In this document: positions 20,418 to 40,689 of the stretch, in pieces
How positions within the stretch are numbered: position 1 is the first letter of the stretch
Layout of the letters: every line of letters starts with the position of its first letter
NCBI RefSeq assembly: GCF_965641715.1
Contig: NZ_OZ282453.1
Origin: Escherichia coli
GTDB lineage: Bacteria > Pseudomonadota > Gammaproteobacteria > Enterobacterales > Enterobacteriaceae
Reading direction: 5' to 3' (one strand)
DNA length: 64,000 nucleotides
Notes under the pieces: generated by a model
The model's input: the letters and a program-made list of their open reading frames with translations, nothing else
The model's database searches: none
What the model was told of the DNA's origin: nothing
Position numbers and translations under genes: made by a program

Positions 20418-22082
20418 TTACTCGCCAACTTTCGCCCAGGTATCACGCAGCCCAACGGTGCGGTTAAATACCGGTTTTTCGGCAGTGGAATGGCGGCTAT
20501 CGAGGCAGAAGTAACCTTCACGCTCAAACTGGAATGCTTTACCCGCAACCGCATCTTTCAGCGACGGTTCAGCAAAGCCCTGTTTGATCACCAGCGATTC
20601 CGGGTTAATCACCGACAGGAAATCATCCGCAGCACCAGGGTTCGGCACACTGAACAGACGGTCATACAAACGGATTTCAACCGGCAGCGCATGTGCCGCG
20701 CTCACCCAGTGAATAACACCTTTGACTTTACGACCATCTGCCGGATCTTTACTTAAGGTATCGGCGTCATAAGTACAGAAGATGGTGGTGATATTACCTT
20801 CGGCATCTTTCTCGACGCGTTCTGCCTTAATCACATAAGCATTACGCAGACGCACTTCTTTACCGAGCACCAGACGTTTGTACTGCTTGTTAGCTTCTTC
20901 GCGGAAATCGGCGCGATCGATCCAAATCTCACCGCTAAACGGCACCTGACGGCTCCCCATTTCCGGTTTGTTCGGATGGTTCGGCATGGTGACCATTTCG
21001 CCTTCGCCCTGATAGTTTTCGATAACCAGTTTCACCGGATCGATAACCGCCATTGCGCGCGGCGCATTTTCGTTGAGATCTTCACGGATGCAGGATTCCA
21101 GCGACGCCATCTCAATGGTGTTGTCCTGCTTGGTCACGCCGATGCGTTTGCAGAACTCACGAATAGAAGCCGCAGTGTAACCACGACGACGCAGACCGGA
21201 AATGGTCGGCATTCGCGGGTCATCCCAGCCTTCAACGTGCTTGTCGGTCACCAGCAGGTTCAGCTTACGCTTGGACATCACAGTGTATTCCAGATTCAGG
21301 CGCGAGAATTCGTACTGGCGCGGGTGAACAGGAATGGTGATGTTGTCCAGCACCCAGTCGTACAGGCGACGGTTGTCCTGGAACTCAAGCGTACACAGAG
21401 AGTGCGTAATACCTTCCAGCGCATCGCTGATGCAATGGGTGAAGTCGTACATCGGGTAGATGCACCACTTGTTGCCAGTCTGGTGGTGTTCAGCAAATTT
21501 AATGCGGTACAGCACCGGATCGCGCATTACGATAAATGGCGACGCCATGTCGATTTTCGCACGCAGGCAGGCTTTACCTTCTTCAAAACCGCCGGTACGC
21601 ATTTTCTCGAACAGCGCCAGGTTCTCTTCAACGCTACGGTCGCGGTACGGGCTGTTTTTACCAGGCTGCGTCAGGGTGCCGCGGTATTCGCGGATCTGTT
21701 CCGGCGTCAGTTCATCAACGTACGCCAGGCCTTTATTGATCAGTTCGATCGCATAGGCGTGGAGCTGATCAAAATAATCGGAGGAGTAACGGACGTTACC
21801 AGACCAGTGAAAACCTAACCACTCAACGTCGTTTTTGATCGAATCGACATACTCGATATCTTCTTTTACCGGGTTAGTGTCGTCGAAACGCAGGTTGCAC
21901 TGGCCTTTATAGTCCTGGGCGATCCCGAAGTTCAGGCAGATAGATTTCGCATGGCCAATATGCAGATAGCCATTCGGCTCCGGCGGGAAACGGGTGTGTA
22001 CTGTGGTGTGCTTACCACTGGCCAGATCTTCATCGATGATCTGACGAATAAAGTTAGTCGGGCGGGCTTCTGCCTCACTCAT
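20418..22082 (-). CDS. glnS: glutaminyl-tRNA synthetase (554 aa)
   Basis: [17 protein letters not shown]...; class I HIGH (HIGH) and KMSKS-like (VMSKR) motifs. Confidence 0.97.
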
Positions 22083-22301
22083 CGTGGATTCCTCAAAGCG
22101 TAAACAACGTATAACGGCGTATGATCTTATAAGCGGGACAGGCTGACAACTGTTAGTTAGCGAAAAAGTGGTTTTGCGTAAGATATTGGGGCGTTTTCTG
22201 CGCTACAGCCAGCAGATCCTCGCGCTGGAGACGTAAGGCCAAACGTCGCCAGCCTGACGCGTTTATTAAATTTCCGGATGAGCTGGCCGCAGAGTCGTAG
22301 A

Positions 22302-23063
22302 TTAATCCGCTATGATTAAACGCGTCGACAAGGACGCCAGCGTTTTGCGCGTCTGCCCATCAAGCTGATTATCCGTAATAATCTCTGTCAGTTCATTAAG
22401 ATGCGCGATATTAAACAGCGACCATGAACCGTATTTTGAGCTGTCAGCCAGGAGAATTTTGCGCGAAGCATGCGCGATAAGATCGCGTTTTAGTGCGGCT
22501 TTCTCTTCCGTGGGTGCTGTAATACCCTTTTCAAGATCCCAGCTGTTACAGCTTAAAAATGCCACGTCCGGCCAGGTATTTTGCAGCATTTTACGACCAT
22601 GTTCGCCAATGCAGGACTGGCTGGAGTCGTCGATACGTCCGCCGATAATCGTCACTTCAATCTGCTTGAATTCAGCCAAAAAAAGCGCGATATGCAGGTC
22701 GCTGGTGATCACGCGAAGCGGTAAATGGGTAATCTGCCGCGCAAGTTCAATCATTGTCGTACCGGCATCAAGGACGACGGAATCCCCCGCTTTGACCATT
22801 GACGCCGCTGCGCTGGCGATGGCATGTTTTTCCGCCAGGCTGCGCTGCATTTTCTCATGGGTAGTCGGTTGGGTAGGAATAAACCGGTTGAGGGTCACAC
22901 CGCCGTGTGTACGGCTGATAACACCCTGCTCATCGAGTTTTATCAGGTCTCGACGAATCGTGGCCGGCGACGCATTGGTTACCGCCACCAGCTCATCAAC
23001 GGTGACCAGATTATGGCTTTTCAGGTAATCCATGATCTGCTCTAACCGGTTATATCCCTTCAT
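22302..23063 (-). CDS. DeoR/GlpR-family transcriptional regulator (253 aa)
   Basis: N-terminal HTH ([30 protein letters not shown]) and C-terminal DeoR-type sugar-phosphate-binding domain; last gene of a three-gene leftward operon. Confidence 0.8.
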
Positions 23064-23064
23064 T

Positions 23065-24051
23065 TTATTCTCGCGAAATCTGCATTGCTAACTGGATGGA
23101 AACTGCCATGCTCTCAGACTTGGCTTTTCCTGTCCAGGCAATATCAAATGCGGTGCCGTGGTCGGCAGAAGTACGAATAAATGGCAACCCGGCGGTGATA
23201 TTCACCCCATCATAAAATCCAAGCAGTTTTAAAGGGATATGCCCCTGATCGTGGTACATAGCCACCACCATATCGAATAGCCCTTCATGGCACTGCATGA
23301 ACACGGTATCTGGCGGGCACGGGCCAGTAACATCAATATCTTCGGCCTGCATTGCTTCAATCGCAGGTGCGATAATCTCGATTTCCTCAGTGCCGAATAA
23401 ACCGTGTTCCCCTGCATGTGGATTTACACCCGCCACGGCAATACGCGGACGCTCAATACCGACACGTTTCAGGAAGTGGTTCGCAACTCGAATAACCGTT
23501 TTGACCCTTTCACCGTTCAATGTATCCAGGAATTTACGCAGTGAGATGTGAGTCGAAATATGGATAACCTTGAGCTTATCGGTATAGAGCACCATCGCGT
23601 ACTCTTTGCTGCCGGTAAGATGGGCCAGCAATTCCGTATGGCCAGGATAGTTATGCCCGCCAAGATGCAGCGCTTCTTTATTCAACGGCGCAGTGGCTAT
23701 GGCTTTCACCTCGCCTGATAAGGCCAGGGCCGTTGCACGTTTGATACAGCGATACGCTAAATCGCCTGCCGCAGCCTGTACCACTCCGGGTGTCAGCGCA
23801 TCGGGGTTAGCCAGCGGCTCATCCATCACGTTAATCACGCCGGGAGCAAAGTGGGCGTCGCACACCTTTTGAATGACGCGTAACTCTGTCTGCGGCGTGA
23901 TATTCATCGCCATAATACGTCGTAACGTGCGCACACAGCCCACCACCACCACCGGGGCACCAGCAAGCCCGGCTTCGCTCAGGGATTTAATAATGATCTC
24001 CGGGCCAATACCCGCCGGATCGCCCATCGTTACCGCAATAATATTATTCAC
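23065..24051 (-). CDS. PdxA-family NAD-dependent dehydrogenase, PdxA2-like (328 aa)
   Basis: Whole-length resemblance to 4-hydroxythreonine-4-phosphate dehydrogenase ([23 protein letters not shown]); starts 8 nt inside the upstream kinase gene. Confidence 0.75.
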
Positions 24052-25282
24052 TACGCTTCTCCTCGATAAAATTCAGAACCTGATGCAACGTGGTCTCATC
24101 GCCAAACCCACCGGCTTTCGTCATCACCGAACGGGACCAGACGCCGCCCAGAAAGTGACCGTATGGAACGCACTGCGCCACCTTCCCCGTAATACGAAAC
24201 CCGGTCGCACCTAACGCACTGGCTGTTGCCATTGCGACATCGCCACCAGAGAGATAAAGGGCATCAGGGGTGACACGAAGCAGAACTTGCCGGGTAAGTT
24301 CGCCAAGAAACCGGCAAATTTTTTCCCCAAGCGCAGCGCGACTCATCTGCCAACGCTGGCAAAGGGTGTCGATATGGTGCCTTGCTTCAGAATCGGTACA
24401 GGTGTGGACAATGCAGTGGTCCCCTTTCTGTAAGGCCTGCACAATACGCGCGTCATAGCCCCTGGCGTTGCCTGCCAGAATGTGTTCAACATCGACGTAT
24501 ATCTGTGTGATACGTGAGTGTGAATGCAGTGTGGCGATCTGCCGTTGAGCGATTTCGCTCATTGAACCAATAATGGCCAGCACGGTGGGTGGCGGCATAA
24601 TCGCCGAGCGCCGGGCAACGGCATCACAAATACCAGCGGAGCCGACCAGCAGCAGCGGTTGTTTAGCCTGCATCACAGCGGCAGCGATGCAATCCAGGTC
24701 GCTGTCCGTCTGCGCATCCATCACCCCAATCCACGGTTGCTCACGAGACAAATGGCTGAGCTCAGAAACTGTAACGGGCTGGCATGGAATGGCCGTCTGC
24801 AACCGAATGATGTCCGCAATTCGTGCGCTCATTACCGGGGTTTTTGGATCGCTGGCAAACTCGGTTTCCGTTAGCCGCACGCCGTTTACCCGACACTCAC
24901 CGTCCACCGTGGTCCTTCCCACCTGGGGAAATGCGGGGGCAACCACTGCGCCCGTTATGCCGCATGCCTGCATCAGGGCTTCAATTTCTGCGCCGATATT
25001 CCCTCGCAGCGTGGAATCTATCTTTTTAATCATGAGCGGCGGGTTATTCGCCAGAGGGAGATGACTCATCAGCGAGGTCATTTTCATCGCGGCCTGCTTA
25101 GGATCCATCGCCCGACTGTCGCTATTAATCACCCATACGCTTGCATCACCGTGATAAGGCGTTGCAAAGGCCACATCAACCGTATGTCCCACCTGCGCCA
25201 GGCTTACTCCTGCGTCGTTGGCCCCTGTGAAATCATCGGCAACGACGAGAATGCTCGGCTTAGTGATTCCCTTTTCCATCAT
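24044..25282 (-). CDS. four-carbon acid-sugar kinase family protein, DUF1537/OtnK-DtnK-like (about 412 aa)
   Basis: N-terminal hallmark ILVVADDFTGANDAGV; start set at the ATGATG doublet preceded by GGAG (track ORF runs to a TTG at 25321). Confidence 0.7.
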   Translation of the reverse strand: MMEKGITKPSILVVADDFTGANDAGVSLAQVGHTVDVAFATPYHGDASVWVINSDSRAMDPKQAAMKMTSLMSHLPLANNPPLMIKKIDSTLRGNIGAEIEALMQACGITGAVVAPAFPQVGRTTVDGECRVNGVRLTETEFASDPKTPVMSARIADIIRLQTAIPCQPVTVSELSHLSREQPWIGVMDAQTDSDLDCIAAAVMQAKQPLLLVGSAGICDAVARRSAIMPPPTVLAIIGSMSEIAQRQIATLHSHSRITQIYVDVEHILAGNARGYDARIVQALQKGDHCIVHTCTDSEARHHIDTLCQRWQMSRAALGEKICRFLGELTRQVLLRVTPDALYLSGGDVAMATASALGATGFRITGKVAQCVPYGHFLGGVWSRSVMTKAGGFGDETTLHQVLNFIEEKRSE

Positions 25283-25448
25283 CACTCCAGGTTGTTTTAT
25301 GATGACAATGATTATATTCAATCACGATTGATTAAATGTGAGCAAGTTCAAGTTATTAATCACTCGAATAAATTATAAAATTAGGCCATGTTACGTAGAC
25401 AACGGTATTTTGAATGATTGATTTCAATCACGAGAAGAGAGGTTATTT
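25283..25448. promoter_or_regulatory. divergent promoter/operator region of the island
   Basis: AT-rich 166-bp spacer between divergent operons containing TCAATCAC-GATTGATT (25318-25333) and its permuted inverted-repeat form GATTGATT-TCAATCAC (25416-25432). Confidence 0.5.
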
Positions 25449-26606
25449 GTGGTAATTATCAATAGCACGATACTGAGCGGCGCAGGCGCTATCCCTTCCC
25501 TGACGTCGCTCTTACCCGGCGTCAGAAAATTGCTGCTGGTCACAGACAGCAATATTGCGCAGCTTAACGGAGTGCAGCAGATTCGCGCCTTACTGGAAAA
25601 GCACTGCCCGCAGGTGAGCGTTATCGATAATGTGCCTGCAGAGCCTACGCATCATGATGTGCGCCAGCAAATGGCGACCCTCGGCAACGCGTCGTTTGAT
25701 GTAGTAGTGGGCGTCGGCGGCGGCAGCGTGCTGGATGTCGCAAAACTGTTGTCGGTGCTTTGTCACCCCGATTCACCGGGGCTGGATGCGCTGCTTGCCG
25801 GTGAAAAACCGACGCAGCGGGTGCAATCATGGTTGATTCCTACAACCGCCGGTACCGGCTCAGAAGCCACGCCAAATGCGATTCTGGCGATCCCTGAACA
25901 AAGCACGAAGGTGGGTATTATTTCTCCGGTGCTGCTACCGGATTATGTGGCACTTTTCCCCGAGCTGACCACCAGCATGCCCGCACATATTGCAGCGTCT
26001 ACGGGCATTGATGCGCTTTGTCACTTACTGGAGTGTTTTACCGCGACCGTGGCAAATCCGGTCAGCGATAACGCGGCGCTAACCGGGTTAAGTAAGCTTT
26101 TCCGGCATATTCAACCCGCCGTGAACGATCCTCAGGATCTGCGCGCAAAACTGGAAATGCTGTGGGCGTCTTACTATGGCGGCGTAGCGATAACCCATGC
26201 GGGCACGCACCTGGTCCATGCGCTCTCCTACCCGTTAGGCGGCAAATATCACCTGCCGCACGGTGTGGCGAATGCCATCTTGCTGGCACCGTGCATGGCG
26301 GTTGTTCGCCCCTGGGCGGTCGAGAAATTTGCCCAGGTCTGGGATTGCATTCCCGATGCGGATACATCCTTGAGCGCGGAAGAGAAATCTCACGCTCTGG
26401 TGGCCTGGCTACAGGCATTAGTCAATCAACTCAAGCTGCCCAACAATCTCGCGGATCTTGGCGTACCGCCAGATGATATTACGTCTCTTAGCGCGGCGGC
26501 ACTGAACGTGAAGCGCCTGATGAACAATTCCCCCTGCCAACTGAATCAGCGGGACGTGCAGGCCATTTACCAAACGCTGTTTCCGCAACATCAATTTAAG
26601 GAGTAA
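25449..26606 (+). CDS. iron-containing (group III) alcohol dehydrogenase (385 aa, GTG start)
   Basis: GGGS NAD(P)-binding motif (VVGVGGGSVLDVAKL) and His-rich metal site (HALSYPLGGKYHLPHG); RBS agagagg upstream. Confidence 0.75.
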   Translation: MVIINSTILSGAGAIPSLTSLLPGVRKLLLVTDSNIAQLNGVQQIRALLEKHCPQVSVIDNVPAEPTHHDVRQQMATLGNASFDVVVGVGGGSVLDVAKLLSVLCHPDSPGLDALLAGEKPTQRVQSWLIPTTAGTGSEATPNAILAIPEQSTKVGIISPVLLPDYVALFPELTTSMPAHIAASTGIDALCHLLECFTATVANPVSDNAALTGLSKLFRHIQPAVNDPQDLRAKLEMLWASYYGGVAITHAGTHLVHALSYPLGGKYHLPHGVANAILLAPCMAVVRPWAVEKFAQVWDCIPDADTSLSAEEKSHALVAWLQALVNQLKLPNNLADLGVPPDDITSLSAAALNVKRLMNNSPCQLNQRDVQAIYQTLFPQHQFKE

Positions 26607-26609
26607 ATC

Positions 26610-27497
26610 ATGCCAAAAACCATTGAAGGTGTATTAACCGCCATCGTCACCCCGTTTACCGCGACCGGCGTCCTGAATCTCCCGGCGTTAAAAGTGCAGG
26701 TTAATCGCCAACTGGAAGCCGGTAACGCGATTTTTTGCGGCGGCACCAACGGCGAGTTTTTTGTGTTGAACGAACAGGAGAAGCTCAGCGTTACGCAAAC
26801 CTGCGTGGATGAAGTGGCTGGCCGCGCACCGGTCGTGGCGCACATTGGTGAGATCTCGACGCGCGAAACCATTCGTCTGGGTCAGCAGATTGAAAAACTG
26901 GGCGTTGATGCGGTATCGGTCATTACCCCGTACTTTGTACCGCTAAAACAGGAAGAGCTGATTGCCCATTACACCGCAATTGCCGACGCACTAAGCATTC
27001 CCATGTTTCTCTATAACATCCCGGCCCGCACCGGCAATACGATTCAGCCGGAAACCGCGCGCGCTCTGGCGTCGCATCCCAATATCATTGGGATTAAAGA
27101 CAGCGCCGGAAGCTACGAAAGCCTGAAGGGTTTTCTCGATGCTGTGCGCAACATTGACGGCTTTAATGTGCTCAACGGCCCGGATTCGCTGATCCATAAA
27201 GGGTTTGTCGAGGGGTGTTCAGCCTGTATTTCCGGGCTCGCCAACGTCGCGCCGCGAGAAATCAATGCCATCTGGTCTCGCTTCCATGCCGGTGATATTG
27301 AAGGATCGTATCAGGCACAGGAGAGTGTGACTGGCCTGCGTACCGATCTTTATAAAGTAGCATTCTCCCCAGCTGCGGTGAAAAAAGCGTTGCAGCTTAT
27401 GGGGCATGATGTTGGTGATAGCCGCTACGCGGTTAATTTCACGCCTGAACAGATCAGCGAGATTCAACAAATTATTCGTCATTATCACATTAATTAA
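26610..27497 (+). CDS. DapA/NanA-family Schiff-base aldolase/lyase (295 aa)
   Basis: GVLTAIVTPF N-terminal motif, GGTNGEF, and Schiff-base lysine context IIGIKDSAG; starts 3 nt after the ADH stop. Confidence 0.75.
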   Translation: MPKTIEGVLTAIVTPFTATGVLNLPALKVQVNRQLEAGNAIFCGGTNGEFFVLNEQEKLSVTQTCVDEVAGRAPVVAHIGEISTRETIRLGQQIEKLGVDAVSVITPYFVPLKQEELIAHYTAIADALSIPMFLYNIPARTGNTIQPETARALASHPNIIGIKDSAGSYESLKGFLDAVRNIDGFNVLNGPDSLIHKGFVEGCSACISGLANVAPREINAIWSRFHAGDIEGSYQAQESVTGLRTDLYKVAFSPAAVKKALQLMGHDVGDSRYAVNFTPEQISEIQQIIRHYHIN

Positions 27498-27556
27498 ATT
27501 AACTCTATTATCCAGCCCGCTATAACGTATAGATAAAGAGAATAAAGGATTACCCC

Positions 27557-28315
27557 ATGTTTTTGTGGTTTATGCAGCCAGATATCTGGCTCACTTTAAT
27601 TACCCTCACCTTTCTGGAAATTATTCTCGGGGTGGATAATATTATTTTTCTTTCACTGGTGGTGGCAAAACTTCCGTTATCACAACAAAATATGGCGCGT
27701 AAACTGGGTTTAAGCTGCGCGATGATTATGCGGATATTATTGCTGATATCCATTGCGTGGCTTTCACATATTACCCAGCCGCTTTTTACCGTGCTGGCGC
27801 TGGAGATTTCGTTCCGCACGTTGATTCTACTCGGGGGCGGGCTGTTCCTGATTTATAAAGCGATACAGGAGATACGCGAAGAGTTGTCGCCCGCGCAGGA
27901 AGACGCGCATGGCAGCGGGTCGCGGCAGCTGTCGCTGTGCGGTGCTATCGTACAGATAATGCTGCTGGATATTGTGTTCAGCCTGGACTCGGTGATCACC
28001 GCCGTCGGCCTTTCTCAGCATATATTTATTATGATTGCTGCCGTCATGATTGCCGTTGGCATCATGATGTTTGCGGCGAAAACCATTGGTGACTTCGTGA
28101 ACGCGACGCCATCGATAAAAATACTGGCGTTAACCTTTTTATTATTTGTCGGCGTATTGTTGGTTGCCGATAGCCTCAATATTCATATTGCCAAAGAGTA
28201 TCTCTACTTCGCGATATTTTTCTCATTAAGCGTGGAGACACTCAATATTTTCCGTGAAAGAAGACATAAAAAAGTTTCGACATCGATCGAAACGCATGAA
28301 TCGAACTCGCATTAA
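27557..28315 (+). CDS. TerC-family integral membrane protein (252 aa)
   Basis: About seven hydrophobic helices with two DN/DS-type motifs (LGVDNIIFLSL, FSLDSVITAVG) typical of TerC/YgdQ-like proteins. Confidence 0.55.
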   Translation: MFLWFMQPDIWLTLITLTFLEIILGVDNIIFLSLVVAKLPLSQQNMARKLGLSCAMIMRILLLISIAWLSHITQPLFTVLALEISFRTLILLGGGLFLIYKAIQEIREELSPAQEDAHGSGSRQLSLCGAIVQIMLLDIVFSLDSVITAVGLSQHIFIMIAAVMIAVGIMMFAAKTIGDFVNATPSIKILALTFLLFVGVLLVADSLNIHIAKEYLYFAIFFSLSVETLNIFRERRHKKVSTSIETHESNSH

Positions 28316-28350
28316 TAAATCTATTACCGACTTTAAGATGGAGTCTAACT

Positions 28351-29520
28351 ATGTCTGTAGCTCTTATTCGTGACGGCGTCATCCGTCCGTCCGAAAATGA
28401 TTCGCATGTGCTTACCGCCATGCTGCCCTCGTCCTGCCCGCAAAACCACGCGGCGAATATTCTGCCTTTGCCGGATGGCGCGTTAATGTGCGTCTGGTTT
28501 GCGGGAACGCAGGAAGGTATTGCCGATATTTCCGTCTGGGGATCGCGGCTGCCCGCTGGCGGAACGCAGTGGAGCGATGCGGTCAAACTGTCCCACGATG
28601 ACACGCGTTCAGAGCAGAACCCGGTACTGTTTCTCGCACCGGATAACGTGCTGTGGCTGCTATGGACCGCACAAATATCCGGTAATCAGGACACCGCCAT
28701 CGTCCGCTACCGTAAGTCAGACGACCTCGGACAAACCTGGGGCGAGATTGCCACGCTGCTCGATAAACCCGGCACGTTCATTCGCCAGCCGATCACGGTG
28801 CTTGATAACGGCAACTGGCTGCTGCCCGTCTTTTATTGCCGTACCCAACCCGGTGAAAAATGGGTCGGCAATGATGATATCAGCGCAGTGAAAATTTCCG
28901 CTGACGGTGGTCACTCATGGCGCGATGTCGAGGTGCCGCAAAGTCTCGGCTGCGTTCATATGAATATCACAATGCTGCACGACGGTACGTTGGCTGCTCT
29001 CTTTCGCAGCCGTTGGGCAGACAACATCTATATCAGCCATTCTGCGGACCACGGCGAGAGCTGGTCGGTGCCGCAAGCAACCGAACTGCCCAACAACAAT
29101 TCGTCTATTCAGGTGACGACGCTTGCCAGCGGTGAGCTGGCGCTGGTGTACAACGCAATGAGTGCGGCAGGCGCAGTAGAACGTCGCGCGTCGCTGTATG
29201 ACGAAATCGACGATGGCGACGACAGTCGCAAAGAACCCACAGCCGTTGGACGCTCCGCTTTCTGGGGTGCCCCGCGCGCGCCGATGACGGTAGCGATTTC
29301 TGCCGATGGCGGGAAAAGCTGGCCGTGGCGGCGCAATCTCGATGAAGGCGATGGCTACTGCATGACCAACAATTCGCTGGAAAAGCTAAATCGCGAGTTC
29401 TCCTACCTCAGTATCAAACAAAGCCCGGACGGTACGCTGCATATCGCTTACACCTGGTGGCGTCAGGCCATCAAGTACGTGCGCATCTCCCCCGAGTGGG
29501 TTAAGGGGCAGGCATTATGA
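28351..29520 (+). CDS. BNR/Asp-box repeat sialidase-like protein, predicted cytoplasmic (389 aa)
   Basis: Four S-x-D-x-G-x-[TS]-W Asp-boxes (SDDLGQTW, SADGGHSW, SADHGESW, SADGGKSW); N-terminal IRP (FRIP-like); no signal peptide. Confidence 0.75.
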   Translation: MSVALIRDGVIRPSENDSHVLTAMLPSSCPQNHAANILPLPDGALMCVWFAGTQEGIADISVWGSRLPAGGTQWSDAVKLSHDDTRSEQNPVLFLAPDNVLWLLWTAQISGNQDTAIVRYRKSDDLGQTWGEIATLLDKPGTFIRQPITVLDNGNWLLPVFYCRTQPGEKWVGNDDISAVKISADGGHSWRDVEVPQSLGCVHMNITMLHDGTLAALFRSRWADNIYISHSADHGESWSVPQATELPNNNSSIQVTTLASGELALVYNAMSAAGAVERRASLYDEIDDGDDSRKEPTAVGRSAFWGAPRAPMTVAISADGGKSWPWRRNLDEGDGYCMTNNSLEKLNREFSYLSIKQSPDGTLHIAYTWWRQAIKYVRISPEWVKGQAL

Positions 29521-29987
29521 TTATCGGGAATCTCAACCATTTGTCACAGGCGGGGCTTCCCGCTGGCGTGAAAAATATTCTGCTGCGCCCGGAATGTTCG
29601 TTACGGGCGTTATCCGCCAGAGAGGACGGTCGCTGGCAACTGGAAGGATGCCGGTGGTTCTGCACGCTGGGCCTTTCAGACACGCAGCCCGCCGATCTCC
29701 GGCATACGGAGTATCACCATCTGTGGGCCGATATTCAGGTGGTGATTGCCGGTTGTGAGGGCATTAATGCGGGGACGCGGCCCGTAGCGCAGGAAAGCGA
29801 TGAAGAACGTAAGCCCGATCTGTTTATCGCCCCATCCCCTGAAAACAGTGTCGCAATCACCTTACACCCCGGTGATTTCGCCGTCTTTATGCCAGAAGAA
29901 CCCCATCAGGCGCTGTGCGCGGTTGGCGCGGCCACGTCAGTACGTAAAGCGGTCTTTAAGGTACCGCGCGACATGCTGGAAGCCTAA
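29517..29987 (+). CDS. YhcH/YjgK/YiaL (DUF386) family protein (156 aa)
   Basis: Size and N-terminal pattern (MIIGNLNHLSQAGLP...) typical of the DUF386 family found in sialic-acid and beta-galactoside operons; ATGA overlap with the BNR gene. Confidence 0.65.
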   Translation: MIIGNLNHLSQAGLPAGVKNILLRPECSLRALSAREDGRWQLEGCRWFCTLGLSDTQPADLRHTEYHHLWADIQVVIAGCEGINAGTRPVAQESDEERKPDLFIAPSPENSVAITLHPGDFAVFMPEEPHQALCAVGAATSVRKAVFKVPRDMLEA

Positions 29988-30000
29988 AAGGAGAGAAAAA

Positions 30001-31281
30001 ATGACAATGGAAATGATCCTGGCATTAGGAATACTGGTCCTGATGATCGTGCTGATCATGTCGGACAAAATGCCCTTTGGCGCACCGCCACTGCTTGCGT
30101 GTTTATTGCTGGTTGTCTCGGGGCTGTCGACGGTTCAACAGGCTTTTGCCGGATTCGTCAATCCAAGCGTGGTGATGATTGCAGGGTTTATGGTGGTGAT
30201 GGCTGCGCTACAAAAAACCCGGCTTATCAGCAACGTTAAATCTGCGATGATAAGCCTGGTCAATAAAGGCAGTTACCGCAGTTATGGGCTGTTGTTAGTC
30301 ATCGTTATGCTGGGCGCCAGTCTTGCCGGCACCGGCGCGACGGGTTATTACGTGCTGATTCTGTCTCTGGTATCCACCATTCCGTACAGTAAAAAGCTAC
30401 CAACATCGAAATTGATGATGCCACTGGGATTTGCCACCAACCATCCGCTTCTTCCTATCAATCTCGCGCTTCTCTTTGGCGTCACGGCGACCGTACTCGA
30501 AACAGCCGGTTTTCATCAGGAGATTTCGATGGGGCGCTTTGCGCTGGTGAATCTCGTCATGTCAGCGGCTTTTCTGGCGTGGAGTCTGATTGCCTACCGT
30601 TTTCTTCCGGATCATCCCATTGCGGATGCTTCCGAGGATGCGCTGGCCGCACGCGAAGAAACGTTTAACGCCCTTCCTGCCTGGAAAGAGTATTGCACCA
30701 TCGCCGCATTCGCCGTCAGCGTTATCGGCATGATGCTGATGAATATGCTGGGTAATATCGCCTTCGTTATTCCAGGCCTTGCGGGTGCGTTTGTTCTGAT
30801 GATCGATGTACTGGACTTTAAAGAAGTTCGCGATCATATGGGGGCACCGGTCATTTTAATGATGGCGGGGGTGATCGGTGTGGCTGATGCGCTGGCTGGC
30901 ACCGGCTTTACGGCAATGGTAGGCGATGCCGTTGCAGGTGTGCTCGGGTCTGGCGTCTCACCGTTTGTATTTATTGTCGCCTTTGCTTTACTTACCAGTA
31001 CCTGCGCCACCTTCACGGGTTCGAATATGGGGTCAGTCTATATTTTTGCCCCCATCGCCATTGCCGCCTGTACTAGCCTTGGGCTTAACCCGACCGCTGC
31101 CGCGATTGCGGTGGTGATTTCTGGCTGGAATGGCGGCTATATGCCTATTGACGGAATGCCAGCCATGATCCTCGGAATGGGGAAATACAAACTTCCCGAA
31201 TTCTGGGTGTTCTCTGTACCAATGTATCTCATCCGCATTCTGGCGCTTTGTGCAGGCGCTGTTTTTATCTTCCCAATGTAA
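30001..31281 (+). CDS. anion permease of the ion-transporter superfamily, GntP/CitMHS-like (426 aa)
   Basis: ATG at 30001 preceded by aaaggagag; 10-12 hydrophobic segments with two-repeat architecture; the track ORF (29800) carries a spurious upstream extension. Confidence 0.6.
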   Translation: MTMEMILALGILVLMIVLIMSDKMPFGAPPLLACLLLVVSGLSTVQQAFAGFVNPSVVMIAGFMVVMAALQKTRLISNVKSAMISLVNKGSYRSYGLLLVIVMLGASLAGTGATGYYVLILSLVSTIPYSKKLPTSKLMMPLGFATNHPLLPINLALLFGVTATVLETAGFHQEISMGRFALVNLVMSAAFLAWSLIAYRFLPDHPIADASEDALAAREETFNALPAWKEYCTIAAFAVSVIGMMLMNMLGNIAFVIPGLAGAFVLMIDVLDFKEVRDHMGAPVILMMAGVIGVADALAGTGFTAMVGDAVAGVLGSGVSPFVFIVAFALLTSTCATFTGSNMGSVYIFAPIAIAACTSLGLNPTAAAIAVVISGWNGGYMPIDGMPAMILGMGKYKLPEFWVFSVPMYLIRILALCAGAVFIFPM

Positions 31282-31290
31282 TCTCAGACA

Positions 31291-31326
31291 AAAAAAGCGG
31301 CAGAGAAGATCCCTGCCGCTTTTTAT
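31291..31326. terminator. bidirectional intrinsic terminator at the island/nagE junction
   Basis: aaaaaagcggcagagaagatccctgccgcttttt: 7-bp GC stem flanked by an A-run and a T-run. Confidence 0.7.
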
Positions 31327-31329
31327 TGT

Positions 31330-31362
31330 TGAATGCGACGCTGCCGTGTCGCATCAGGCATG
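31330..31362. repeat. REP-like palindromic fragment
   Basis: gaatgcgacgctgccgtgtcgcatcaggcatg. Confidence 0.45.
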
Positions 31363-31369
31363 AAGCAGA

Positions 31370-33316
31370 TTACTTTTTGATTTCATACAGCGGTGTTTGA
31401 CCCGCCACAACATGGCCCTGAGCTTTAATGATCAAGCCACTGAAATCGTCGATATTACTGCAAACCACTGGGCTAATCATCGAGCGGGCGTTAGCGTTCA
31501 GGTAATCCAGATCCATTTCCAGAATCGGTTGTCCTGCGCTTACCTGCGCGCCCTCTTCCACCAGACGTTTAAAGCCTTTACCTTCCAGCGCTACGGTATC
31601 GATACCCATATGGACGACGATCTCCGCGCCTTTTTCGGTTTCCAGGCAGAACGCGTGGTTGGTGTTGAAGATTTTCACGATTGTCCCTGCGGCTGGTGAT
31701 ACGACGATTTTATCTGTCGGTTTCACCGCCACACCGTCACCCACTGCTTTGCTGGCGAATGCTTCGTCAGGAACCTGATCCAGTGCCACGACATCACCGG
31801 TAATCGGCGATACCAGCTCCGCGATAGATACCGCGTTTGGTACAGCCTGCGGTTTTGCTACAGGAGCGGCAGTTGCCGGAGTTGCTTCAGCAGAGGCAGC
31901 TGCTACCGGGCCACGGGCAACGACTTTCTTCATCGCATCGCCGATGGATTCTGCTTTCGCGCCAACAATCACCTGAATAGTCTGTTTGTTCAGTTTTACT
32001 ACACCAGAAGCACCCAGACGTTTACACATCGTATCGTTAACGCGGGCAGAGTCAGCCACTGTAAGGCGCAGACGGGTGATACAGGCGTCAATTGCTTTCA
32101 GGTTGTCAGTGCCGCCAACCGCAGCAATATAGTTGGTCGCCAGTTGATTGAGGCCTTCTTCAGTGTTGCTGTTGGCTTCTTCAGTAACGATCTCGTCTTC
32201 TTTATCTTCACGACCCGGCGTTTTCAGGTTGAACATGCGGATAACCAAACTGAACACCACGAAGTAGATAGCGAAGAAGACAACACCCATCACCAGCAGC
32301 ATCCAGACGTTCTGGCTGGCGGCCGGCAGGTTATACATCAACGCGTAGTCGATAGCCCCCGCAGAGAAAGAGAAGCCGGCATGGATACCCAGCAGCGTTG
32401 CCACAAACAGGCTGATACCGGTCAGCAGTGCGTGCAGGAGGTACAGCAGCGGTGCAAGGAACATGAACAGGAATTCCAGCGGCTCAGTCACACCGGTCAG
32501 GAACGCAGTAACAGCAACAGAAAGCAGCATCCCGCCAACCATCGGACGACGCTCTTTCGGTGCTGCGAAGTACATCGCCAGCGCCGCCCCCGGCAGACCG
32601 AACATCATGATCGGGAAGAAGCCGGACATGAACATCCCCGCGGTGCCGTCACCGGCATAGAAGCGGTTGATATCACCGTGGAAAACCGTACCCGCCGCGT
32701 TGGTGAATTCACCAATCTGGAACCAGGCGATGGTGTTCAGCACCTGATGCAGACCGGTTGGGATCAGCAGACGGTTGATGAAACCAAAGATACCGGAACC
32801 CAGCGCGCCCGCAGAAACGATCCACTCGCCGCCTGCATGGATAGCGTGCTGTACCGGCGGCCAGACGTAACCAAAAATGGCCGCCAGCACCAGACAGAAG
32901 AAGCCGGTGGCGATCGGCACAAAGCGTTTGCCGCCGAAGAAGCTCAGGAAGTCCGGCAGTTTAATATCGGACCAACGGTTATAGGCTGCGCCACCAACCA
33001 GACCGGTAATGATACCCGCCAGTACACCCATGTTAATTTCTGGGTTGATGGTCACCATCGCTTTGGTTAACACAAAGTAACCTACCGCACCCGCCAGCGC
33101 CGCCGCACCTGCGCTGTCTTTCGACCAGCTGGATGCCACACCGATGGCGAAGATTAATGCGAGGTTATCAAAAATCGCACCGCCCGCCTGGGCAATAAAC
33201 GCAACGTTAAGTAAATCTGGCTGACCGAATCGCAGCAACAGTGCCGCCACCGGCAGCACCGCGATAGGGAGCTGTAACGCCCTACCGAGTCGCTGGAAAA
33301 AACCTAAAATATTCAT
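31370..33316 (-). CDS. nagE: PTS N-acetylglucosamine-specific EIICBA component (648 aa)
   Basis: MNILGFFQRLGRALQLPIAVLP...; EIIC membrane domain, EIIB cysteine region, EIIA C-terminus. Confidence 0.96.
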   Translation of the reverse strand: MNILGFFQRLGRALQLPIAVLPVAALLLRFGQPDLLNVAFIAQAGGAIFDNLALIFAIGVASSWSKDSAGAAALAGAVGYFVLTKAMVTINPEINMGVLAGIITGLVGGAAYNRWSDIKLPDFLSFFGGKRFVPIATGFFCLVLAAIFGYVWPPVQHAIHAGGEWIVSAGALGSGIFGFINRLLIPTGLHQVLNTIAWFQIGEFTNAAGTVFHGDINRFYAGDGTAGMFMSGFFPIMMFGLPGAALAMYFAAPKERRPMVGGMLLSVAVTAFLTGVTEPLEFLFMFLAPLLYLLHALLTGISLFVATLLGIHAGFSFSAGAIDYALMYNLPAASQNVWMLLVMGVVFFAIYFVVFSLVIRMFNLKTPGREDKEDEIVTEEANSNTEEGLNQLATNYIAAVGGTDNLKAIDACITRLRLTVADSARVNDTMCKRLGASGVVKLNKQTIQVIVGAKAESIGDAMKKVVARGPVAAASAEATPATAAPVAKPQAVPNAVSIAELVSPITGDVVALDQVPDEAFASKAVGDGVAVKPTDKIVVSPAAGTIVKIFNTNHAFCLETEKGAEIVVHMGIDTVALEGKGFKRLVEEGAQVSAGQPILEMDLDYLNANARSMISPVVCSNIDDFSGLIIKAQGHVVAGQTPLYEIKK

Positions 33317-39986: not shown

Positions 39987-40063
39987 GGCTACGTAGCTCA
40001 GTTGGTTAGAGCACATCACTCATAATGATGGGGTCACAGGTTCGAATCCCGTCGTAGCCACCA
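39987..40063 (+). tRNA. metT: tRNA-Met (elongator, anticodon CAT)
   Basis: ggctacgtagctcagttggttagagc...gtcgtagccacca; cloverleaf with CAT anticodon and encoded CCA. Confidence 0.95.
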
Positions 40064-40071
40064 TCTTTTTT

Positions 40072-40156
40072 GCGGGAGTGGCGAAATTGGTAGACGCACC
40101 AGATTTAGGTTCTGGCGCCGCAAGGTGTGCGAGTTCAAGTCTCGCCTCCCGCACCA
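40072..40156 (+). tRNA. leuW: tRNA-Leu (anticodon TAG), class II with long variable arm
   Basis: gcgggagtggcgaaattggtagacgc...ctcgcctcccgcacca, 85 nt. Confidence 0.93.
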
Positions 40157-40179
40157 TTCACCAGAAAGCGTTGTACGGA

Positions 40180-40254
40180 TGGGGTATCGCCAAGCGGTAA
40201 GGCACCGGTTTTTGATACCGGCATTCCCTGGTTCGAATCCAGGTACCCCAGCCA
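40180..40254 (+). tRNA. glnU: tRNA-Gln (anticodon TTG)
   Basis: tggggtatcgccaagcggtaaggcaccggtttttgataccgg...cccagcca. Confidence 0.93.
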
Positions 40255-40288
40255 TCTTCTTCGAGTAAGTGGTTCACCGCCCGGTTAT

Positions 40289-40363
40289 TGGGGTATCGCC
40301 AAGCGGTAAGGCACCGGTTTTTGATACCGGCATTCCCTGGTTCGAATCCAGGTACCCCAGCCA
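40289..40363 (+). tRNA. glnW: tRNA-Gln (anticodon TTG), identical copy of glnU
   Basis: Identical 75-nt sequence to the glnU copy. Confidence 0.93.
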
Positions 40364-40378
40364 TCGAAGAAACAATCT

Positions 40379-40455
40379 GGCTACGTAGCTCAGTTGGTTA
40401 GAGCACATCACTCATAATGATGGGGTCACAGGTTCGAATCCCGTCGTAGCCACCA
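40379..40455 (+). tRNA. metU: tRNA-Met (elongator, anticodon CAT), identical copy of metT
   Basis: Identical 77-nt sequence to metT. Confidence 0.93.
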
Positions 40456-40501
40456 AATTCTGAGTGTGTCGAATATGTTCGGCAAATTCAAAACCAATTT
40501 G

Positions 40502-40576
40502 TTGGGGTATCGCCAAGCGGTAAGGCACCGGATTCTGATTCCGGCATTCCGAGGTTCGAATCCTCGTACCCCAGCC
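40502..40576 (+). tRNA. glnV: tRNA-Gln (anticodon CTG)
   Basis: tggggtatcgccaagcggtaaggcaccggattctgattccgg...cccagcca. Confidence 0.93.
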
Positions 40577-40614
40577 AATTTATTCAAGACGCTTACCTTG
40601 TAAGTGCACCCAGT

Positions 40615-40689
40615 TGGGGTATCGCCAAGCGGTAAGGCACCGGATTCTGATTCCGGCATTCCGAGGTTCGAATCCTCGTACCCCAGCCA
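40615..40689 (+). tRNA. glnX: tRNA-Gln (anticodon CTG), identical copy of glnV
   Basis: Identical 75-nt sequence to glnV. Confidence 0.93.

Follow-up and report, generated by a model that had tools for sequence, protein, structure and literature searches.

We analysed a 64,000-nucleotide stretch of Escherichia coli DNA (hereafter the window; RefSeq assembly GCF_965641715.1, contig NZ_OZ282453.1), in which an island of nine genes lies between glnS (20418–22082, minus strand) and nagE (31370–33316, minus strand). The two flanking genes are 9,287 bp apart here and 202 bp apart in a K-12-type strain, which bears out the contrast between about 9.3 kb and about 0.2 kb that an earlier note on this DNA had drawn. 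Alignment and blastn searches against an empty-site locus (L006) placed the junctions at 22158/22159 and 31286/31287, and the island proper (22159–31286) is therefore 9,128 bp long and takes the place of 43 bp in the K-12-type spacer. The K-12 derivative MC4100 carries the empty site without any of the nine genes, and thousands of other strains match the flanks only. Between glnS and nagE, the open reading frame (ORF) list and coordinates give nine intact genes that form two divergent operons, one of three genes on the minus strand and one of six on the plus strand, as the earlier note had described, and the family it had proposed for each product held in NCBIfam and Pfam profile searches and by RefSeq names. 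The starts of the dtnK and permease genes were shortened to those that RefSeq gives on an orthologous island. At the nagE side, an inverted repeat forms a putative bidirectional terminator hairpin (31292–31324), and a REP-like palindrome follows up to about 31365; both had been noticed as junction features, but they are also present in the empty site and belong to the backbone, not to the island.

The left operon, encoded on the minus strand, consists of dtnK, pdxA2, and a regulator gene. DtnK (24044–25279, with the ORF extending to 25321) is a DUF1537 kinase of 411 residues that passes the NCBIfam equivalog model for D-threonate kinase (NF047819; 531.7 bits against a cut-off of 450), with only 108.8 bits against the OtnK model, and RefSeq also names its gene dtnK. 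PdxA2 (23065–24051) passes the equivalog model for the decarboxylating D-threonate 4-phosphate dehydrogenase (NF002891; 680.9 bits against 583), in agreement with its RefSeq name. The third product (22302–23063) is a DeoR/GlpR-family transcription regulator according to RefSeq, and it matches the NCBIfam models AgaR, YgbI, and GlpR at E values of about 1e-50, all below the equivalog cut-offs. As judged from these profile matches, the left operon encodes the known D-threonate pathway. A D-threonate catabolic pathway of Salmonella enterica, formed by DtnK and PdxA2, was reportedly described by Zhang et al. in 2016 (PNAS). The same two enzymes, together with a DeoR-type regulator, are found in the left operon here; unlike in Salmonella, no dedicated D-threonate transporter is evident in this operon, and the enzyme pair is joined to a six-gene upstream module that we propose makes D-threonate from a larger sugar acid. 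The identity to the Salmonella proteins has been given as 75% for PdxA2 and 40% for DtnK (PMC12928451).

The two operons are separated by a divergent control region of 169 bp (25280–25448), which contains operator-like palindromes. Two copies of TGATT-N6-AATCA are located at 25309–25324 and 25415–25430 and are the only two in the window, and the related arrangement AATCA-N4-TGATT is located at 25320–25333. The dtnK-proximal palindrome is kept in all 28 of the 28 divergent-type loci of Enterobacterales and Tolumonas, ranging from E. coli to Dickeya, Rouxiella, and Tolumonas. These palindromes are candidate operators, and their positions fit a common control of both operons by the DeoR protein. 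Scans of the island for consensus promoters and terminators returned no more sites than shuffled sequence did and were uninformative.

The right operon, on the plus strand, begins with a gene for an iron-containing alcohol dehydrogenase (Fe-ADH, 25449–26606), which has a D-x3-H motif and a pair of histidines 14 residues apart, presumably the metal ligands of FucO-type enzymes. Its best NCBIfam matches are the models for ErcA, lactaldehyde reductase, and 4-hydroxybutyrate dehydrogenase, at approximately 214–220 bits, below the cut-offs. The last of these enzymes takes 4-oxobutanoate to 4-hydroxybutanoate, and the score against it, which is as good as that against any other NCBIfam family, would fit the reduction of a C4 aldehyde-acid. 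The next gene encodes a class I aldolase of the DHDPS/NAL family (26610–27497), with 33% identity to K-12 DapA and 29% to K-12 NanA. It falls below the cut-offs of the DapA model TIGR00674 (189.6 bits against 206.15) and of the NanA models TIGR00683 (114.3 against 382) and NF003164 (148.4 against 281). The Schiff-base Lys163 and the catalytic Tyr135, in the columns of DapA K161 and Y133, are retained, with Phe at the position of DapA Y107 and the motif GTNGE in place of GTTGE; judged by the TIGR00674 cut-off together with the catalytic triad Y133/T44/Y107, the protein is not a DapA. Alignment of 59 aldolase sequences indicated that the K161 and Y133 columns are kept and that the column of DapA R138, occupied by Arg140 here, holds Arg or Lys in 55 of the 59 orthologues, whereas NanA has Leu. 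In DapA, R138 clamps the carboxylate of aspartate semialdehyde, which is a 4-oxobutanoate, and the aldol adduct is a C7 dicarboxylate. The arginine of the island aldolase would thus fit a C4 aldehyde bearing a carboxylate.

Downstream of the aldolase gene, a TerC-family membrane protein is encoded at 27557–28315; it is named so by RefSeq and reaches 84 bits against the YkoY-family model TIGR03716, below the cut-off of 138.5. TerC genes are often preceded by a Mn riboswitch. An Rfam scan found no riboswitch, of this or another kind, before the TerC gene, and no riboswitch or sRNA match elsewhere on the island apart from noise at E = 0.18. After the gene of a sialidase-like protein, which is described below, follows that of a YhcH/DUF386-family protein (29517–29987) that passes TIGR00022 (97 bits against 45.5) and stays below the NanQ equivalog cut-off (94.3 bits against 160), with 33% identity to K-12 NanQ. 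The E. coli protein YhcH/NanQ opens the ring of N-acetylneuraminic acid (Neu5Ac) for NanA (PMC8141875). The last gene (30001–31281, with the ORF open from 29800) encodes a DASS/SLC13-family permease of 426 residues, which aligns over the full length of TIGR00785 with 57.1 bits against a cut-off of 198.6 and is named 'SLC13 family permease' by RefSeq. This permease is 76% identical (tblastn) to one encoded in a Paenibacillus ginsengihumi cluster, which suggests transfer between phyla.

The remaining product of the right operon (28351–29520, 389 residues) matches the Pfam family BNR_2 at 1.4e-62, has no NCBIfam match, and has no signal-peptide-like N-terminus, indicating a predicted cytoplasmic location. 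The AlphaFold model is a confident six-bladed beta-propeller (pLDDT 93), and its nearest solved structures are GH33 sialidases; four Asp-boxes (S-x-D-x-G-x-x-W) are located at residues 123, 183, 231, and 317. In an alignment of 21 family members, reaching down to 35% identity, E55, R145, R219, R221, R309, Y352, R371, and H33 are invariant or nearly so. Profile alignment to 9eob, the top sialidase match, paired R219 and R309 with arginines and Y352 with a tyrosine, from which we infer that R219 and R309 are two arginines of the triad and that Y352 is the nucleophilic tyrosine. The invariant E55 is one residue away from the position aligned to a NanI aspartate, which we take to be the acid/base residue. 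The propeller is closer to GH33 than to GH143, and neither by sequence nor by closest fold was a relationship to the GH143 enzyme BT1020 found. A search of a representative library of 1.84 billion proteins returned 1,373 relatives at E ≤ 1e-10.

We next compared the island with related loci, which were found through the sialidase-like family with one genome per species; the best 80 loci were kept, homologues of every island protein were sought in them, and the counts for the four enzyme genes refer to a distance within 10 kb of the propeller gene. Fe-ADH is encoded in 60 of the 80 loci, the DHDPS-like aldolase in 57, PdxA2 in 56, and the DUF1537 kinase in 52, and all four occur together in 46; where all four are missing, the contig is truncated in several cases. 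A DeoR gene is present in 39 of 80. The loci come from Enterobacterales, Burkholderia, Paraburkholderia, Rhodocyclales, Rhizobiales-type bacteria, Azospirillum, Methylobacterium, Bacillus, Paenibacillus, Megasphaera, and Lucifera, with varying gene order, and both halves of the island are found together in Proteobacteria, in Firmicutes, and in one actinobacterial-type locus, and in part on a fungal contig. One metagenomic locus carries kinase, Fe-ADH, PdxA, DHDPS, a short-chain dehydrogenase/reductase (SDR), BNR, and TRAP genes in this order on a single strand, while a large replicon of Sinorhizobium meliloti has the arrangement DHDPS-ABC / BNR-PdxA-FeADH / kinase. The kinase and the dehydrogenase are coupled at several levels: their ORFs overlap by 8 nt here, their genes are adjacent in most related loci, and they are fused in Ralstonia. 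In the Ralstonia solanacearum megaplasmid, which reads DHDPS-ADH-(kinase+PdxA2 fusion)-SSF-BNR-DeoR, the fusion is one 766-residue ORF (L095, 5115–7415) annotated as 'hypothetical protein' and lies between the ADH gene and the SSF-BNR pair.

Enzymes are also exchanged for non-homologous ones. The locus L091 (GCA_033441515.1) is arranged as ABC-BNR / DeoR-PdxA-kinase / aldo-keto reductase-HpcH/HpaI aldolase, with an aldo-keto reductase in place of Fe-ADH and a class II HpcH/HpaI aldolase in place of the class I aldolase. A fungal-type contig of 434 kb (L089, from an ENA metagenome), which encodes Zn2Cys6 transcription factors, carries genes for BNR_2, DHDPS, PdxA, an aldo-keto reductase, and an MFS transporter; its BNR_2 protein is 49% identical to that of E. 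coli, and part of the module thus seems to be present in fungi. To our knowledge, fungi do not use PdxA for vitamin B6 synthesis. Since the roles are kept through shuffling, fusion, and non-homologous replacement, which is the strongest evidence for one encoded pathway, the two operons are better read as a single functional unit. Most relatives have an SSF transporter gene before the propeller gene and an SDR gene just downstream of it; in most Enterobacterales, the SSF gene lies between those of the aldolase and the propeller, and the SDR gene comes after yhcH. Comparison of L008, L014, L041, and L057 revealed that in E. coli, Klebsiella spallanzanii, and Kluyvera the TerC gene occupies the SSF slot and the DASS permease gene occupies the SDR slot, and for this reason the substrate may enter E. 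coli in another form.

We favour, with modest confidence, the reading that all nine genes work together as a regulated unit that imports and degrades an acidic 2-keto-3-deoxy sugar, with 3-deoxy-D-lyxo-hept-2-ulosaric acid (Dha) as the leading candidate; the pathway logic considered apart from Dha is somewhat more probable than this, and Dha as the actual substrate is a tentative assignment. We infer the order of the steps, the part played by the sialidase-like protein, and the substrate as follows. The DASS permease would import the substrate, a task that would fall to an SSF, TRAP, ABC, or MFS transporter in other bacteria, and the cytoplasmic propeller, as a ketosidase or hydratase, would free the keto acid from a small glycoside or from an anhydro or unsaturated form. 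The YhcH-like protein would then act as an anomerase that opens the ring and gives the open-chain keto acid to the DapA-like aldolase, which would split it into pyruvate and the C4 aldehyde-acid 2,3-dihydroxy-4-oxobutanoate. Reduction of the latter by Fe-ADH would yield D-threonate, DtnK would convert D-threonate to D-threonate 4-phosphate, and oxidative decarboxylation by PdxA2 would give dihydroxyacetone phosphate and CO2. The DeoR protein would repress both operons through TGATT-N6-AATCA until an intermediate of the pathway appears.

The choice of substrate follows from the bridge between the two halves. Because the sole conserved bridging enzyme is an alcohol dehydrogenase or an aldo-keto reductase, the aldehyde must already carry the carboxylate, and if it is 2,3-dihydroxy-4-oxobutanoate, the substrate would therefore be a C7 2-keto-3-deoxy dicarboxylic acid. 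HpaI cleaves such a C7 2-oxo-4-hydroxy-dicarboxylate, 4-hydroxy-2-oxoheptanedioate, into pyruvate and succinic semialdehyde, and the HpaI-family aldolase that takes the place of the class I enzyme in L091 would fit a C7 diacid by analogy. The DASS permease would also suit a di- or tricarboxylate, but this carries little weight, as uptake in most relatives relies on SSF, TRAP, or ABC systems. Dha is a signature sugar of the pectin rhamnogalacturonan II (RG-II), a seven-carbon analogue of sialic acid, and is released by a sialidase-fold enzyme (PMC6811678; bioRxiv 10.64898/2026.03.13.711244). In our own derivation from the Fischer projection, C4, C5, and C6 of Dha (D-lyxo) point left (L), left, and right (R); the aldehyde left after retro-aldol cleavage, OHC-C5(L)-C6(R)-COOH, is D-threuronate, and the reduced product, renumbered from the carboxylate, has C2 = L and C3 = R, which is D-threonate. 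As a check, the same derivation gives D-arabinose for 3-deoxy-D-manno-oct-2-ulosonic acid (Kdo, D-manno), as known.

The distribution agrees with a pectin-derived substrate, being largely plant-associated: orthologues occur in Pectobacterium, Dickeya, Erwinia, Pantoea, Kosakonia, Ralstonia solanacearum, Azospirillum, and Bradyrhizobium, and on plasmids of Rhizobium (128), Sinorhizobium (78), and Agrobacterium (17). The Bacillus pumilus cluster is adjoined by genes for a GH28 galacturonidase-like protein and a UxaA-like dehydratase. Several other sugar acids were considered and rejected. Kdo would yield D-arabinose, which does not reach D-threonate; 5-keto-4-deoxy-glucarate and 5-keto-4-deoxyuronate (DKI) would be cleaved to C3 fragments; and a monocarboxylic heptulosonate giving threose would need an aldehyde oxidation for which E. 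coli has no conserved enzyme here.

Several observations weigh against the proposed route. The SSF transporter and the additional SDR of most relatives are both missing in E. coli, and SSF-BNR-SDR occurs alone in Bradyrhizobium (L054 and others) and in some Pantoea (L026, L028, and L029), where no aldolase, kinase, or PdxA2 gene is found within 10 kb; in Bradyrhizobium, the set adjoins genes for talarate/galactarate-dehydratase-like and M20/amidohydrolase proteins. For these reasons, the upstream chemistry may be different from or more complex than that proposed. The kinases of the distant clusters are only 25–35% identical to DtnK here, and D-erythronate is a possible substrate in those clusters. 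The catalytic set of the propeller looks non-canonical, with a conserved Asn-His (H33) at the position of the RIP-motif Arg and His203, or Gln in some members, at that of the expected partner Glu, both positions being taken from profile alignment only. A glycosidase would be needless if free Dha were imported, which leaves the role of the sialidase-like protein unsettled; as a guess, its substrate could be a small ketoside such as Dha linked to galacturonic acid (Dha-GalA), or else an anhydro or unsaturated form. The route gives no part to TerC, and a pathway this widespread would be unexpected for a sugar as rare as Dha. Our literature search found no paper that links these genes to Dha, RG-II, or Kdo, and no catabolic route for Dha.

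Among the alternatives, the same pathway logic could serve another substrate, such as a different 3-deoxy-heptulosaric stereoisomer, an undescribed plant or microbial glycoside or anhydro-sugar acid, or, in the distant clusters, a source of D-erythronate. This is unlikely, but it has points in its favour: the conserved SSF-BNR-SDR set, found also without the lower pathway, hints at redox-assisted upstream processing, and both the GH33-like rather than GH143-like character of the propeller and the low identity of the distant kinases would be in keeping with it. The Enterobacterales kinase and dehydrogenase, however, pass D-threonate-specific cut-offs, the configuration of Dha yields exactly D-threonate, and we know of no other natural heptulosaric acid. 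A second alternative, that two unrelated operons for D-threonate use (left) and sialic-acid-like scavenging (right) merely adjoin each other, is improbable and is disfavoured by the neighbourhood data, namely, co-clustering across phyla with shuffled order, loci with all genes on one strand, the kinase-PdxA2 fusion embedded between the ADH and transporter-BNR genes, and the candidate operator common to both operons. What speaks for it is the divergent arrangement, the existence of a stand-alone analogue for each half (Salmonella dtnK-pdxA2 and the E. coli nan operon), and the lack of a transporter in the left operon, which could mean that D-threonate is formed inside the cell or enters through the DASS permease.

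It is still less probable that the island scavenges sialic acids of host glycans (Neu5Ac, the deaminated sialic acid KDN, or Kdo) and thereby aids colonisation by B2 strains and extraintestinal pathogenic E. coli (ExPEC). The combination of a sialidase fold, a NanA-like lyase, and a NanQ-like protein does resemble nan clusters, and ExPEC/B2 strains do carry the island. Yet the lyase remains under both NanA cut-offs (114 against 382 and 148 against 281) and carries Arg in place of the Leu of NanA, no NanK, NanE, or NagA-type genes are present in the island, the sialidase-like protein is predicted to be cytoplasmic, the cleavage products (N-acetylmannosamine [ManNAc], mannose, and arabinose) do not feed the D-threonate pathway, and the distribution covers mostly plant-associated bacteria. 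The grounds for rejecting a Neu5Ac island in particular were the lyase scores below the cut-offs, the residue in the pocket, the absence of nanK and nanE, and the ecology. Least probable of all, and very much so, is a role in pyridoxal phosphate (PLP) metabolism, in which the DUF1537 kinase and PdxA2 would recycle 4-hydroxy-L-threonine into B6 synthesis, as suggested in PMC12928451. Reviews state that DUF1537 kinases can phosphorylate 4-hydroxy-L-threonine and that PdxA2 can replace PdxA, but the same reviews class PdxA2 as catabolic. This idea would also leave unexplained why the aldolase, reductase, anomerase, propeller, and transporter genes co-occur in dozens of taxa, and E. coli already has a canonical pdxA.

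The island was found in 1,047 of 5,426 complete RefSeq E. coli genomes (about a fifth), and E2348/69 is one of the carriers. All 1,047 copies were checked and are single-copy, chromosomal, and at this one site, with none on plasmids or at other E. coli sites. The locus has been catalogued as genomic region GR6 (nagE..glnS), common to B2 ExPEC and adherent-invasive E. coli (AIEC) strains and present in BEN2908, APEC O1, IMT5155, RS218, IHE3034, 78-Pyelo, CFT073, and LF82; it was filed under uncharacterised sugar metabolism, with the PdxA2/DUF1537 pair read as PLP synthesis (PMC12928451). The locus is thus catalogued, with no function assigned to it in that comparative study of 2026. The description of an uncharacterised system in the earlier note is apt for the right operon and does not extend to the left one, whose D-threonate enzymes are known; only the right operon and its link to the left operon are new here. 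Profile searches found no integrase or transposase among the island ORFs, all nine of which are metabolic, transport, or regulatory; a tRNA scan found none within 8 kb of the island, and the junctions have no flanking direct repeat, so that the same absences read earlier from the letters were confirmed by scans of the window. The GC content, whose comparison the earlier note had proposed, is 52.9% in the island and 51.5% in the flanks, which is no shift. An origin as a mobile element was rejected on these grounds (no integrase, nearby tRNA, direct repeats, or GC shift). The nearest tRNA genes, seven in number (Met-Leu-Gln-Gln-Met-Gln-Gln, 39987–40689), lie downstream of asnB about 8.7 kb away and are unrelated to the island; their position beside asnB matches that in other E. 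coli. All nine island genes are intact, and in the six whose alignment to a B2-type allele is free of gaps, dN/dS values of 0.015–0.18 indicate purifying selection. Being accessory, confined to one site, free of mobility marks, and constrained, the locus is fairly described by the earlier label of an old indel-type pan-genome locus.

Comparison of the island in the window with other copies indicated an unusual allele. Ordinary E. coli strains with the empty site match the right (nagE-side) flank at 99.3% identity, whereas the island reaches only 95.4% identity to the best of the 1,047 copies. Identity is 88–93% across the Fe-ADH, aldolase, and YhcH genes (YhcH, approximately 89–90%) and approximately 98–99% in the regulator gene and pdxA2, and the Fe-ADH-aldolase segment (25449–27497) is at most 93.3% identical to any complete E. 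coli genome. Against the B2-type allele, dS is approximately 0.17–0.21 in the right operon and thus above the 0.09–0.13 of glnS and nagE. Because the island diverges more than its flanks, and unevenly among its genes, the sequence comparison indicates that this strain carries a distinct, mosaic, and still constrained allele, which suggests either a long-standing polymorphism or recombination with a lineage that has not been sampled. At codon 353 of the sialidase-like gene (29407–29409), this allele has Leu where the B2-type allele and approximately 90% of the family have Pro; the substitution (P353L) directly follows the putative nucleophile Tyr352 and gives SYLS instead of SYPS. Separately, a 10.1 kb contig with glnS and nagE ends from a metagenome-assembled genome named 'Citrobacter sp. 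HRGM_Genome_0066' (L007) is approximately 94–100% identical to the B2-type E. coli island in 300-nt windows, most of them at 99–100%; the Citrobacter label of this genome, or the binning of the contig, is probably wrong.

The proposed unit follows the same logic as the E. coli nan system, in which a transporter, a ring-opening anomerase, and a class I pyruvate aldolase act on a cyclic 2-keto-3-deoxy acid. It differs in that the lyase and the anomerase are only approximately 29–33% identical to their nan counterparts and below the equivalog cut-offs, that the aldehyde pocket has Arg instead of Leu, and that the downstream part would consist of reduction, phosphorylation, and decarboxylation of a C4 acid instead of ManNAc metabolism. 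The propeller has its fold in common with GH33 sialidases, which are secreted in other bacteria, whereas the protein here is predicted to stay in the cytoplasm. The activity proposed for it is that of BT1020 of Bacteroides thetaiotaomicron (GH143, PDB 5mqs), a sialidase-type propeller that acts on the Dha of RG-II (PMC6811678). HpaI/HpcH and DapA both handle a C7 2-oxo-4-hydroxy dicarboxylate from or to pyruvate and a 4-oxobutanoate, as proposed here; the substrate here would, however, be polyhydroxylated and cyclic, and the aldolase is not homologous to HpaI, nor does it qualify as a true DapA. Carter et al. in 2018 reportedly described D-apiose catabolic pathways with the DUF1537 kinase OiaK. 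These pathways are a precedent for a dedicated RG-II-sugar route with a DUF1537 acid-sugar kinase, although the sugar, the upstream enzymes, and the kinase subfamily are different (30 bits against the OiaK cut-off of 700 for the kinase here).

If the proposal is wrong, what remains is an accessory locus for sugar acids of an ordinary sort that has already been catalogued. If it is right, it would assign a function to the block by which about a fifth of E. coli genomes, B2/ExPEC strains among them, differ from K-12, and D-threonate would have a natural origin in Dha. It would also delimit a large family of sialidase-fold proteins in the cytoplasm, of unassigned activity, and the GH33-like protein here would be a ketosidase or hydratase of a new type, its active site being non-canonical. 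A gap in the mineralisation of the most complex plant polysaccharide would be filled, and plant pathogens, rhizobia, and fungi would use the same module. In the gut, B2/ExPEC E. coli could cross-feed on pectin fragments freed by Bacteroides, which would form a link from diet to pathobiont.

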